A stretch of 57,568 bases of DNA, counting the filler, from Squatina squatina (taxonomy: Eukaryota): the NCBI GenBank assembly GCA_031763465.1. It is 3 parts of 3 records of this genome, joined end to end, with 100 filler letters (N's around TTAATTAATTAA, not from the genome) between each part and the next. Parts side by side here need not be neighbours in the genome. Positions count along the whole stretch, not along the records: positions 43,385 to 57,568 come from JARFOE010000016.1; 2 more parts are not named here. The stretch is one strand, 5' to 3'. The notes beneath the pieces were generated by a model that did not search any database, was not told where the DNA came from, and saw nothing but the letters and a program-made list of their open reading frames with translations. Shown in pieces: positions 7,722 through 46,249 of this stretch; positions within the stretch are counted from its first letter, which is position 1, and each line of letters opens with the position of its first letter. The translations under genes were made by a program, and so were the position numbers.

Positions 7722-8195
7722 GTGCAGTGCAGAGTCACCAGAATGATATTGGTGTTAAAAGGGTTAAATAATGAGGAAAGCTTGCATAGACTAGGCTTGT
7801 ATTCCCTTGAGTATAAAAGATTAAGGACTGACTTAATTGAGATGTTAAACATGATTAAAGGAGTTGATGGGATAAATAGAGAGAAAATATTTCCTCTGGT
7901 GGGGGTAGTCCAGAACAAAGAGGCTTAACCTTAAAATTACAGCTAGGCCGTTTAGGAGTGATGTCAAGCAGCACTTCTTCACACAAAGGATAATGGAATT
8001 CTGGAACTCTCTCCCAAAAGCTGTTGAGGCTAGATCAATTGAAAATTTCAAAACTGAGATTGATAGATTTTTGTCAGGTATTATTGGATATGGAACCAAG
8101 CTGGGTAGATGAAGTTAAGATACAGATCAGCCATGGTCTAACTGAATGGTGGAACAGGCTCGAGGGGCTGAATAGCTTACTCCTGTTCTTATATT
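7722..8195 (+). mobile_element. CR1 LINE 3' end
   Basis: EESLHRLGLYSLEYKRLRTDLIEMLNMIKGVDGINREKIFPL, followed by the cagatcagccatg...gaatggtggaacaggctcgaggggctgaatagcttactcctgttc 3' tail. Confidence 0.85.
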
Positions 8196-13775: not shown

Positions 13776-14805
13776 AGATTTTTGATCAGCAAGGGAACCG
13801 AGGATTATGGAGAAAAGGCAGGAAAATGGAGTTGAGGCCAATATCAGATCAGCCATGATCTCATTGAATGGCGGAGCAGTCTCGAGGGGCCAAATGGCCT
13901 ACTCCTGTTCCTATTTCTTATGGACTCCTTTCTAACTCAATATGTAAAAAGCCTAACCAGGGAGGATTCGCTACTGGATCTAGTAATGGGGAATGAACCA
14001 GAGCAGATAAGAAGTAAAAGTAGGGGAACATAGAGGCAATAGTGACCATAATATAATATGCTTTAAGATGATAATTGAGAAGGGCATAAGGATGATGAAA
14101 ATTGGGGTAACAGATTGGAGAAAAGCTGATTTTGAGGGGCTGAGAATAGAACTTGGGGAAAATAAAGTGGGCGACAATATTGGCAAACAACGATGTAGAA
14201 CAGCAATGGAAAACAGTTAAAACTGTGTTCCAGAGTGCAGGAACAATATATTCTGCTAAAAAAAAAAAGAAACTAAACACCACTGAGAGTCCATGGATGA
14301 ATAAGGCTATAAGGGAACAATTGAGGGTAAAGAAAGAGGCATACATTAAGTACATAGACAGCAGGGGAGTGCATTTGGAGGGAGAATATGAAGAAATTAG
14401 GAGAGAAGTCAAAAAAAAAAGTTAAAATGGCAAAGAGAAACTATGAAATTAAATTATCAAGAACATAAAAGAAAATAGTAACATATCAATTAAAAAAAGG
14501 AAGCAAGGTAGGGATGGGAATAGGGCCACTAAGGGGTCGACAAGATAATACCACAGGTAATAATAGATGGTAAAAATATTGAAGAATTATTTTGCTTCAA
14601 TATTTACTGGCGAGATAGAACAGGTGGACATGACATTGGATGATGAGATTAGTAATGAGATAAGTACATTTAAAATAAAAAGAGGGTTTATATGAAATAA
14701 GCTAATCAAACTCAAAGAGGATAAAACCCCTGGTCCGGATGGATTGCATCCACGCATTTTAAAAGAATCCAGAGACGGGATAGCAGAGGCATTACTACAC
14801 ATATT
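13776..14805 (+). mobile_element. CR1 LINE fragments (3' tail then ORF2 endonuclease-RT linker)
   Basis: A CR1 3' tail to about 13920, then degenerate LLDLVMGNE...SDHN...W.KADF...PWMNK.I...NYFASIFT...KTPGPDGLHPRILKE. Confidence 0.85.
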
Positions 14806-15104: not shown

Positions 15105-15665
15105 AGGAACAGTTATGTTAAAGTTGTATAGAACCTTGGTCAGACCACTCTTGGAGTACTATGACAGTTCTGAGTTCTGATCTCTGTGTTATAAAATGGA
15201 TGTAGAGGCACTGGAGAAGGTTCAAAAATATTTACAAGAACTGAGCAGTGGAAAAGGCTGAACAGGCTGGGGCTCCTTTCTCTGAGAGAAGACAGAAGGG
15301 TGACCTGATAGAGGTCTTTAACATTATGAAAGGGTTTAATAGGGCAGATTTAGAGAAGATGCTTCCACTTGCAGGCGAGACCAGAACTAGGAGCCATAAA
15401 TATAAGATAGTCACTAATAAATCCAATAGGGAATTCAGGAGAAACTTCTTTACCCAGAGTGGCTAGATTGTGGCACTCACTACCACAAGGGGTAATTGAG
15501 GCGCATAGCAAAGATGCATTTCAGGGGAAGCTAGATAAACCCATGAAGAAAGGAATAGAGGATATGCTTATAGTTAGACGAAGAAGGGTGGGAGGAGGCT
15601 CGTGTTGAGCATAAACACCGGCATGGACCTGTTGGACTGAATGGCCTGTTTCCGTGCTGTGAACA
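15105..15665 (+). mobile_element. CR1 LINE 3' end
   Basis: LKLYRTLVRPLLEY...RRQKGDLIEVFNIMKGFNRADLEKMLPL.GETRTRSH...FFTQ, plus the tail ggcatggacctgttggactgaatggcctgtttccgtgctgt. Confidence 0.85.
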
Positions 15666-43284: not shown

Positions 43285-43384
43285 NNNNNNNNNNNNNNNN
43301 NNNNNNNNNNNNNNNNNNNNNNNNNNNNTTAATTAATTAANNNNNNNNNNNNNNNNNNNNNNNNNNNNNNNNNNNNNNNNNNNN
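43285..43384. other. artificial scaffold linker N44-TTAATTAATTAA-N44
   Basis: Identical structure to 28113-28212, with the 12-mer at 43329-43340. Confidence 0.95.
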
Positions 43385-43791
43385 TAGCACTTATGCTGGG
43401 TGTTTGACCATTTATAATATGTACTAGACAAATACTAGTTCTATTGTCAGTGTGGCTTGGCCTGTCCTGTCCTGCCATGATCAGCACAAAGCTTCTGTTT
43501 GCAATAGACAAGTTTAATGGAGATATATGAATTGCAGTGTCAGAAGTGGTTGAATTGTCCATATTGCTCATTTCATTTCATTTTTTAATTTTTTTAATTC
43601 TTAATATTGGTGCCTTTAGTCTTGCAGTCAAAGGGCTGTTAATTGATTCATAGTTTTTAAAAGTTAAAATTCTCTCTTGCCAAGTTAAAGCCCAGATTTA
43701 GATCTTTCTAGGTTTGCAATTTGTGGTGAAGCATGCACTCACCAAGCAATGTTCCTTTTGACTGATGTATGTATTCAAACTTATACTGTAG

Positions 43792-43881
43792 TATGCACCT
43801 GATGACTACAGCGGCCTTATTCAGATGAACGAACAAGCAAGGAGTATGTTTCAGGCACCCAAAGAGTGGGTCTGTTTGTAG
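43792..43881 (+). CDS. ESRP2: ESRP2 stop-containing cassette exon (full exon 43792-43908), canonical C-terminus
   Basis: atactgtag|TAT GCA CCT ... TGT TTG TAG encodes YAPDDYSGLIQMNEQARSMFQAPKEWVCL*, cf. human ESRP2 ...DDYTSLM...VLQAPKEWVCL*. A strong donor AAG|gtaaga follows at 43908/43909. Convergent with NFATC3, as at human 16q22.1. Confidence 0.92.
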   Translation, partial: YAPDDYSGLIQMNEQARSMFQAPKEWVCL

Positions 43882-45279
43882 ATGACCACCTTTACAAATT
43901 TCAATAAGGTAAGAGAGAAACTTCCCAGCTGGCTCTGTGGCCAGGCTTCACTCAAGTGAAATCACGTGGTGTTTCAAAACTGGGATTTTTATTTCTCTCT
44001 CTCCACCTCATCTCTGGGACTACTATCGTCTTTCTTGACACCTTCCAACGATGAGCTGCAAACACATGGTGAGGTGGTGGCAGCCACTTTTTTGAGCAGT
44101 GGCTGTTGCAGTGCTTAATCAATGGTAGAAAAGGAATTGGGTGAAGACTTTTTTTCTTGCATGACTAAGGTAATACGAATTCTCCACTCACTGCAGTAAT
44201 GCATTCACTTTGCGCACACACTAAACAAGAAGTTATTTCCACATGAGTTTAATGGAGATATTTCTTGTGTGTAGATTCTTTCCTCCAAGAAGGAACTGAA
44301 TAAATGTGGGTTCTTCCATTCTTAGAAATAAAAGCATCTTGAAGTGGAAATATTGGCAGAAAATGTTGGTGTACTATTGCACTGTTCCATAAAGTGGAAG
44401 TTGTGCCCATGCAATAAATTCTTTATTGGTTGCACTGAATGGAGACGAGATATGCAATTCCTGTAGAAGTTTGGGGAGGGGAGCAGGAGCCGGGAAGACC
44501 GAATCAACCCACCAGTGGCATTAACGGCCAAGCAGTTTCGGAATCAACTACTTGCCCTAATTTAGGTGGACTAATAATTAGAGTTTGTCAAAGACCCTCG
44601 AAAGTGGAATCGTTGACTGAGAACTGNNNNNNNNNNNNNNNNNNNNNNNNNNNNNNNNNNNNNNNNNNNNNNNNNNNNNNNNNNNNNNNNNNNNNNNNNN
44701 NNNNNNNNNNNNNNNNNNNNNNNNNNNNNNNNNNNNNNNNNNNNNNNNNNNNNNNNNNNNNNNNNNNNNNNNNNNNNNNNNNNNNNNNNNNNNNNNNNNN
44801 NNNNNNNNNNNNNNNNNNNNNNNNNNNNNNNNNNNNNNNNNNNNNNNNNNNNNNNNNNNNNNNNNNNNNNNNNNNNNNNNNNNNNNNNNNNNNNNNNNNN
44901 NNNNNNNNNNNNNNNNNNNNNNNNNNNNNNNNNNNNNNNNNNNNNNNNNNNNNNNNNNNNNNNNNNNNNNNNNNNNNNNNNNNNNNNNNNNNNNNNNNNN
45001 NNNNNNNNNNNNNNNNNNNNNNNNNNNNNNNNNNNNNNNNNNNNNNNNNACTGACCAATGTTAAGTACGTTGAACCATAATAGTTTAATTGTGGCAAATC
45101 CTATTGTTTAGCTAAACATTTTTTAAGTCTACCAGCTGGACAGGCCAAATCATTAGATTGACTTGGAGGTCAATTACCAAAATCTGCTGCTCCATCCAAG
45201 TTGCACGAGGCACACTGGAGACCCTCCAATTTTACACCAAAGAAGTTCCAAAAATCCTTCATTTTTTTTTCTTCCTCAG

Positions 45280-45438
45280 CTTCATGCAGATACGATCTTG
45301 GTTCTGTACAACTTTAATGGCCAGCCCAGTGGAGAAGCTTTGGTGACTTTCCCAACCCTTGAGATGGCTACACGAGCTGTGTCGGAAAAGAATGGACAAC
45401 TTATTGGTCATCAGTGTATAAACCTCAGATTGGTGTAA
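45280..45438 (+). CDS. ESRP2: ESRP2 terminal exon encoding the C-terminal half of a fourth qRRM (coding only if the cassette exon is skipped)
   Basis: Long polypyrimidine acceptor ttttttttcttcctcag|CTT CAT GCA ... GTG TAA, phase 0, encodes LHADTILVLYNFNGQPSGEALVTFPTLEMATRAVSEKNGQLIGHQCINLRLV*. It has the hnRNP F/H/ESRP/RBM12-type G.PSGEA.V.F motif and an .IG...I.L beta-4 strand. A gap separates it from the cassette exon. Confidence 0.75.
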   Translation, partial: LHADTILVLYNFNGQPSGEALVTFPTLEMATRAVSEKNGQLIGHQCINLRLV

Positions 45439-46111
45439 GACCCACAGATCGACTTGTCAGCCTTCATGCCCACGGGAAAAGCATGATGATTCCTTTCTAA
45501 AGGAGAGCGGCCTTGTACAGAACGCGGCAAAAAAAGGAAACTGCATGTGTAAGACACCCCCTTTCTGCCAAAGGGTTGCACACTAATGCAAAAGCCATAA
45601 TAGACTGCAATATTCTGCATCTACCTTTTTTTACCTGCCAACTCGCATTTATGATTTTGACTTTATACTGATGTGGAAGTGACTTGCAAAATTTGACAAT
45701 GCTAAGTGTAGTTAAGTTATATTTTATTTAAACCTAGTAGCTTCAGAGCCATAAGTAGACTCGCCGTTCTTAAAGTGCATGCAGTGTTTATGTTAANNNN
45801 NNNNNNCTGCTTATAGGTAATGCCTTTAATGCATGCAATAGGAATTTTTTGTATATGCCTATAAGCTATAAGGATGAATTTTTTTACACTAAGATGGCTA
45901 AGTGACAAACTATCTGCTGTTGGAGCACTAACACTTACGTTATCCATTACTTTTTCCCCCCCCCCCTCCCTGTGCCTTAATGCAAAGTGCAATATCAGCA
46001 GAACAAAGTTTTGAAAAGGCCTCGTGTGAGGCTGAGTTGTATGTACTTTAGTTAATAGAGCAAGTTTGAAACTTGCAACAGTATAAAATCGTATGCTTTG
46101 TATAGTCAAAC

Positions 46112-46117
46112 AATAAA
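46112..46117 (+). promoter_or_regulatory. candidate polyadenylation signal of ESRP2
   Basis: AATAAA about 670 nt after the terminal-exon stop, at the end of AT-rich UTR-like sequence. Confidence 0.35.
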
Positions 46118-46249
46118 AGTTTAAAGATGCATAAAAGTCTTTTTAGCAANNNNNNNNNNNNNNNNNNNNNNNNNNNNNNNNNNNNNNNNNNNNNNNNNNN
46201 NNNNNNNNNNNNNNNNNNNNNNNNNNNNNNNNNNNNNNNNNNNNNNNNN

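Follow-up and report, generated by a model that had tools for sequence, protein, structure and literature searches.

What does the orphan half-RRM at the C-terminus of ESRP1 and ESRP2, the master regulators of epithelial splicing, belong to? Both proteins are described with three RRMs in the available text of several studies (PMC5478600; PMC4566030; PMC10853802), and the zebrafish Esrp proteins are likewise described as carrying RRM1-3 (PMC11245018). The question is raised by two exons in a 57,568-nucleotide stretch of DNA from the shark Squatina squatina (assembly GCA_031763465.1), here called the window, for which an initial annotation had proposed a switch between a 3-RRM and a 4-RRM protein. 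We consider it probable, if some way from certain, that a stop-carrying cassette, exon A, lies in the intron that splits an ancestral fourth RRM, and that its inclusion or skipping chooses the C-terminus of the protein; ESRP itself may well control that choice.

Exon A is a 117-nt cassette on the plus strand (43792..43908), which is entered through a phase-0 acceptor (...ACTGTAG/TAT at 43792), encodes 29 codons ending KEWVCL before a TAG stop at 43879-43881, and closes with the donor AAG/GTAAGA after position 43908. Its 3' splice-site region (43740..43791, plus strand) is weak, with a branch-point-like CTGAT and a purine-interrupted tract holding 11/20 pyrimidines. The last intron (43909..45279, plus strand, GT..AG) measures 1371 nt as assembled, including 423 N at 44627-45049, and leads to the coding part of exon B (45280..45438, plus strand). 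This second acceptor (...TTCTTCCTCAG/CTT at 45280) is also in phase 0 and is strong, with 19/20 pyrimidines, and opens a frame of 52 codons whose TAA ends at 45438. The two phase-0 acceptors, both frames and the exon A donor are thus present in the sequence as first annotated. Exon B is the last exon of ESRP2. Its 3' UTR, shared by both forms, is placed at 45439..46130 (plus strand), an end suggested by a candidate AATAAA at 46112, and RNA contigs continue past the coding part of exon B as far as 45790 or beyond, 45790 being where the compared stretch ends.

Exon A is 100% identical over 29 amino acids to the tail of ESRP2 X1 of the sawfish Pristis, and exon B shares 88-94% identity with ESRP2 of sharks and rays (94% for Heterodontus) as against 37-38% with skate and gar ESRP1; the locus is therefore a chondrichthyan ESRP2 gene at its 3' end. 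No ESRP exon other than A and B was found in the window by tblastn, which confirms that the half-RRM exon lies outside it; that exon is visible here only as a loose RNA-contig end at 43790, reading D-I-L-S-F-F-Q-G-Y-Q. The scaffold is fragmented, with 38 assembly gaps in the window. The spacers at 43285-43384 and 28113-28212 each consist of 44 N, 12 bases and 44 N, which makes a 100-base assembly spacer, and 20 further gaps are exactly 100 N each; the 12 bases of the first, TTAATTAATTAA, mark a join approximately 400 nt before exon A. On the minus strand, an exon-like frame at 25809-25930, bounded by AG and GT, has its match in Ran-binding protein 9 (7nsc_A, E 4.6e-15), and in RANBP10 with an E of 0.01. 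As this frame sits, on the opposite strand, where the upstream intron and exons of ESRP2 would be expected, the contig order of the scaffold is probably unreliable. A minus-strand peptide from the window had no match in the ESM Atlas, Rfam returned 0 matches, and frames at 7909-8109, 14011-14422 and 15245-15463 resemble, in six-frame translation, what we take to be broken LINE reverse-transcriptase/endonuclease remnants.

RNA evidence came from the Logan contigs of eight shark-type sets, out of 21 runs listed, their RNA status being guessed and not on record. Seven of the eight contain both the joint from the half-RRM exon to exon A and that from exon A to exon B, the latter skipping the 1371 nt between GT and AG, and in the eighth run, X21, the gene is without coverage. 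The assembly gap at 44627-45049 is bridged by an unspliced contig (run X7, record 14) spanning 43879 to 45307, and these joints together with the bridging contig indicate that exon B is not mis-scaffolded. A joint leading directly from the half-RRM exon to exon B was found in 0/8 contig sets, including two with a depth of approximately 300-440 at the A-B joint; contigs lose rare variants, and skipping in those shark samples is at most minor. Given inclusion joints and no skip joint, the 3-RRM form is the dominant one in the shark-type samples. A bird-like mRNA (L002) and a teleost-like mRNA (L003) have the same layout of half-RRM exon, A and B as the shark, and a bird-like genomic contig (L001) carries A and B together without a gap. 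We also considered A and B as alternative last exons and rejected this arrangement, since A splices to B, which then becomes 3' UTR. The last intron does contain three AATAAA hexamers within 120 nt (44299, 44327 and 44413), which could permit intronic polyadenylation with A as the last exon; the intron contigs support this neither for nor against, and in L001 there is one AATAAA, 1.15 kb past its exon A.

When exon A is included, the protein would end with a conserved 29-residue tail behind three RRMs, and exon B would serve as 3' UTR. A stop codon within 50-55 nt of the last junction, on its upstream side, escapes nonsense-mediated decay. The distance from the exon A stop to the last junction is 27 nt in the shark, 22 nt in L001 and L002 and 14 nt in L003, so that inclusion would swap the C-terminus while the message survives. 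The same distances rule out a reading of A as a poison exon acting through nonsense-mediated decay. The splice-site region upstream of A is itself conserved, aligning to the amniote locus L001 with a score of 37 (maximum 28 in 100 shuffles), and a 40-nt AU-rich block of the 3' UTR also aligns (42 against 31); the acceptor region of B gives no alignment (local score 19, shuffle 27). In three gene models (P0004, P0005 and P0085) exon A is read as far as K[ED]W and then continues in frame into B, which would take a GT inside A at approximately 43870; these models, and the five database proteins in which a portion of A is fused in frame with B, are probably prediction artefacts.

It is possible, though we would not favour it, that the purpose of the switch is to gain the exon A tail, with the loss of the fourth RRM as a side effect, an explanation that is compatible with the one we prefer. 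Among 69 stored A-form proteins, identity in the tail is 48-100%; the tail is found also in gar and pike ESRP1 and ends in the conserved motif KEWxC[LI]; moreover, the A form is the only one in the shark-type contigs. Against this, the short tail of a sea-urchin counterpart (P0168, discussed below) shares no sequence with that of exon A, mouse Esrp1 forms with and without exons 14 and 15 are reported to localise alike (PMC5478600), and the tail has no known partner.

When exon A is skipped, exon B would complete the fourth RRM, as it does in a zebrafish cDNA and is predicted to do in sharks. Exon B alone, encoding beta2-beta3-alpha2-beta4, matches positions 28-69/70 of Pfam RRM_1 (E 3.6e-6), and its sequence matches in the PDB are domains of hnRNP H and RBM12. 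Joined to the half-RRM it gives a full-length RRM_1 match, covering positions 2-69/70 in P0001, P0002, P0006, P0007 and P0133 and 2-70 in P0379; in P0133 the match falls at residues 653-721, and the A form has no such stretch. In an AlphaFold2 model of the Heterodontus B form, the region 650-725 adopts a beta-alpha-beta-beta-alpha-beta order (strands 650-655, 680-684, 690-698 and 722-725; helices 663-669 and 701-711) with block pLDDT values of 74-92, making it the best part of the model. This predicted domain superimposes on an RRM of RBM12 (2ek1_A) with Z 14.8 and an rmsd of 1.0 over 78/79 residues. The A-form model has no strands in the same region and a pLDDT under 50 at residues 672-703, although it is weak overall (mean pLDDT 51) and was built from an alignment of 21 rows as against 39 for the B form. 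The ESM Atlas returned only RRM leads below 0.9 for the fourth domain. Checked in these ways, the joined peptide bears out the expectation of the initial annotation, and the skipped product is predicted to be a complete RRM fold.

Whether this domain is also a fourth qRRM, as had been claimed, can be answered in part. In the structure of ESRP1 qRRM2 bound to RNA, F335, R397 and Y398 are described as essential and R331 and E400 as important for RNA binding, and single Ala changes at the clamp sites abolish or reduce it (PMC10853802). The first three domains, qRRM1-3, retain the clamp residues in 16/16 aligned vertebrate proteins. The fourth domain has Q at the R331 position in all 16, and the R397/Y398/E400 positions read Q/C/N in exon B of the window and in relatives of this gene. 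It shares the fold and the loop-1 and loop-3 motifs of the quasi-RRMs of hnRNP F/H type and RBM12 and of ESRP1 qRRM2, keeping a G-L-x-Y (G-L-x-aromatic) in loop 1 and an acidic residue in loop 3. It differs from qRRM2 (PMC10853802) in that the loop-5 R/Y/E clamp and R331 are replaced and that the chain stops right after beta4. A tree of 97 domains gathers every one of the 25 C-terminal domains on a single branch apart from qRRM1-3 (support 94/87, just below the starred level, the tree having few columns and long branches). Judged by sequence, then, the fourth domain is a qRRM by descent and fold, and with its R/Y/E clamp replaced it would be a degenerate one; ancestry and fold stand, and the clamp does not. 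We think it rather likely that the fourth domain has no GGU clamp like that of qRRM1-3 and serves as a module for weak RNA binding or for protein contacts, which may change the activity, partners or stability of ESRP2.

A working qRRM, as the initial annotation implies, that is, a fourth GGU-binding unit such that skipping of A raises the RNA affinity or reach of ESRP2, seems unlikely to us. Its case includes the retained loop-1 and loop-3 features, the R-Y pair in 6/104 stored vertebrate fourth domains (bichir, sturgeon and skate ESRP1) and the full R-Y-E in the fourth domains of Chromosphaera and Cyanophora. The replacement of R331 in every aligned vertebrate protein and the Q/C/N of exon B speak against it, as does the count of 80/104 stored vertebrate domains that keep none of R/Y/E, many of them from related teleosts, at sites where one Ala change suffices to cut qRRM2 binding.

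Direct evidence for both forms comes from zebrafish, in which the cDNA AAH45439 (736 aa; NP_954966, Q7ZVR8) is the skipped B form and AAH65688 (711 aa) is the A form, each paired with a near-identical Logan protein. RefSeq models of ESRP2 that run from the half-RRM directly to B exist for Mobula, Hypanus, Mustelus, Heterodontus and Heptranchias (all computed), and B-form ESRP2 is also annotated in bichir, sturgeon, gar, many teleosts, caecilians, lizards and birds; most B-form records are computed models, mostly alongside A-form isoforms from the same species. The zebrafish cDNA and the five shark and ray models agree with the proposal that B completes the upstream half-RRM when A is skipped. 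Among 205 stored proteins of the vertebrate search, a set biased to B by the choice of queries, 106 join the half-RRM directly to B, 69 have the A form, 5 join part of A to B, 17 are other and 8 lack the half-RRM. Both ends, or the B form, are annotated for ESRP1 of skate and gar, and the same pair of ends in ESRP1 implies that the layout is older than the split between ESRP1 and ESRP2. Two skate ESRP1 isoforms (P0347 and P0348) are short and lack the whole fourth RRM, first half included, as with exon 14 skipping in mammalian Esrp1. In pike ESRP1 (P0368 and P0163) the fourth domain has decayed, with deletions in both halves, and A and B-like ends are still annotated.

As no skip joint was seen in the shark, skipping there rests on the gene models. 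The proposed toggle is thus supported by zebrafish cDNAs of both forms, whereas the shark skip joint is absent from all eight contig sets. We nevertheless regard it as very probable that skipping of A takes place in the shark and ray lineage. It is quite improbable, in our estimate, that exon A is in effect constitutive in sharks, with B a slowly decaying 3' UTR relic and the shark 4-RRM models carried over from fish annotation. That account would fit the missing skip joint, the lost clamp residues and the visibly decayed fourth domain of pike ESRP1, but exon B keeps an acceptor in phase and an intact frame at the high identity across sharks and rays given above, so that the frame conservation expected of a coding exon was found. 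Exon B of the shark still shares 54-71% identity with its counterparts in devil, zebrafish, caecilian, anole and duck. Among the shark differences listed in B, 9/15 are synonymous against an expected 0.24-0.30 (p 0.003-0.015), and among the differences listed there are no indels within B compared with nine places in the UTR behind it. That B belongs to another, RBM12-like gene mis-scaffolded across 44627-45049, a doubt raised in the initial annotation, can be dismissed as next to impossible: RBM12 is the best fold match and a top PDB sequence match and the scaffold has its many gaps, but the A-B joints, the bridging contig and the gap-free L001 exclude it, 8/8 matches of one protein search are ESRP2 or unnamed, and the domain tree groups B-containing domains with other ESRP fourth domains.

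The switch we propose appears to have a limit within mammals. A 4-RRM isoform is annotated in the marsupials Sarcophilus and Trichosurus. No placental isoform of B type was found among the matches listed (8 matches; best 120 of 223; 4 of 152 candidates), the last of these searches having missed even bird proteins and being too insensitive to show absence. The switch has likely been lost in placental mammals. The suggestion of an ancestral isoform reduced in mammals therefore holds for the ancestry of the domain, set out below, and needs restricting for mammals, since marsupials keep the 4-RRM isoform.

A profile search of 1.84 billion representatives, of which the best 150 were used, found proteins of Mytilus, Trichinella, Hypsibius, Chromosphaera and Cyanophora in which an exonuclease-like domain and three qRRMs are accompanied by a fourth domain at the C-terminus. 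The model from Cyprideis has the second half only, and a fly-type fusilli (P0170, Zeugodacus) is without the fourth domain. Its occurrence in mussel, nematodes, tardigrade, Chromosphaera and Cyanophora marks the fourth domain, by sequence comparison, as ancestral. In the sea urchin, XP_792820 continues from FFQGYG into a full fourth RRM, and the Logan protein P0168, from one 3572-nt contig, continues from FFQGYG into a different 12-residue tail and a stop. Four short genomic read-throughs go on with V-S after the same point, the trace of a phase-0 donor in the same place as in vertebrates. The sea urchin thus has two C-termini that part at the vertebrate intron position. In Mytilus, a 628-aa form ends before the entire fourth domain, and the short isoforms P0320 and P0330 are without both halves of the fourth RRM, which may be compared with exon 14 skipping in mammalian Esrp1. 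For sea-urchin Esrp, Burguera 2017 (PMC5703972) lists a 132-nt Esrp-enhanced exon (34/16 to 8/5) that is not grouped with vertebrate exons, and the available text of that study states that no Esrp-dependent exon is conserved across phyla.

From this we would venture, tentatively and as something that may well prove wrong, a wider hypothesis: ESRP was ancestrally a protein with an exonuclease-like domain and four qRRMs, and since the deuterostome ancestor it would have truncated its own fourth RRM by favouring a stop exon that sits within a single phase-0 intron. The P0168 tail would then be the 132-nt Esrp-enhanced exon, the three-RRM ESRP1 and ESRP2 of human and mouse would be a locked truncated state, and exon 15 of mammalian ESRP1 would be a remnant of the switch.

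How the choice is made may be read in part from the flanks of exon A. A cluster of UGGUG/GGUGG motifs, candidate ESRP enhancer sites, lies at 43966..44080 (plus strand) within the first 250 nt past the exon. With a motif set taken from general background, this interval holds UGGUG-type 5-mers at 3 sites, 7 of them when overlapping ones are counted, against a shuffle mean of 1.1-1.2 (p approximately 0.003); only 2/172 gap-free 250-nt bins reach this number, and the 250 nt upstream of A hold 4 (p 0.009). GGU alone is not enriched in the 250 nt past A (p 0.24). The corresponding part of L001 has 6 overlapping 5-mers (p 0.03), and the shark and L001 introns downstream of A do not align. Sixty nucleotides before the A acceptor, beside a UGGUG, AGCATG at 43730-43735 contains a GCAUG core that we take to be an RBFOX-type motif.

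Published data bear on this from another side. Exon group CL013591.02 of Burguera 2017 (PMC5703972) comprises a 102-nt alternative exon of zebrafish esrp2 and a 110-nt exon of human and mouse ESRP1, and from size and position we infer that it is exon A. In that source the inclusion of the mouse Esrp1 exon, 59/57 in normal epidermis, is down to 32/33 when Esrp1/2 are knocked out, which makes it Esrp-enhanced (PMC5703972), the values coming from a frameshifted knockout transcript (PMC4566030); the zebrafish esrp2 exon has the entry NR and no event id, and the human exon has low coverage. Inclusion of an exon is promoted when ESRP binds downstream of it, and ESRP1 controls its own exon-12 splice site (PMC9550651). 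That a homologous mouse Esrp1 exon is Esrp-enhanced suggests self-regulation. ESRP would bind the UGG-rich sites past A and promote its inclusion, so that the 3-RRM form would be expected in ESRP-rich epithelium and the 4-RRM form where ESRP is scarce; given modest motifs and introns that do not align, we hold self-regulation in the shark to be a lead that could equally go either way.

The switch has partial parallels. The nearest in mechanism is exon 6 of RBFOX1/2 (PMC2777236), in which a cassette in a splicing factor decides, under the factor's own control, whether an RRM is whole; there skipping cuts the sole RRM, whereas in ESRP2 inclusion of A breaks an accessory fourth RRM, leaving three intact and without nonsense-mediated decay. 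At the CKLP 5' splice site of ESRP1 exon 12 (Peart et al., 2022; PMC9550651), ESRP likewise shifts its own isoforms through UGG sites; that event toggles a nuclear localisation signal, and exon A of ESRP2 would toggle a folded domain against a short tail, with self-regulation the inferred part. Mammalian Esrp1 has two last cassettes, exons 14 and 15, with a stop in exon 15 and an end in exon 16 when it is skipped (PMC5478600), and Burguera 2017 (PMC5703972) puts exon 15 in one group with the zebrafish esrp2 exon. These exons differ in that they are placed downstream of three RRMs, with no localisation effect and, in the available text, no function given (PMC5478600), whereas in ESRP2 skipping would complete a fourth RRM.

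The 4-RRM sequence as such has long been in databases, the zebrafish Esrp2 reference (Q7ZVR8/NP_954966) being the 736-aa skipped form. Swiss-Prot, we assume, may annotate a fourth RRM in Q7ZVR8. Neither a fourth ESRP RRM nor a stop-exon switch is mentioned in the open-access paper text searched.

The switch is directly testable, with cDNAs of both zebrafish forms available and RNA-seq from knockouts in the public domain. The four-domain isoform is made in zebrafish, chick and other models outside the placentals, and as the zebrafish reference is that isoform, rescue and overexpression results may hinge on the isoform that was cloned. If the wider hypothesis is true, the stop exon of sea urchin and vertebrates would be a cross-phylum Esrp-dependent event that the sequence-based clustering of Burguera 2017 left unjoined. 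For the family as a whole, the switch would account for the orphan half-RRM at the C-terminus of ESRP1 and ESRP2 and would make sense of a mammalian cassette exon that has been described but left unexplained.
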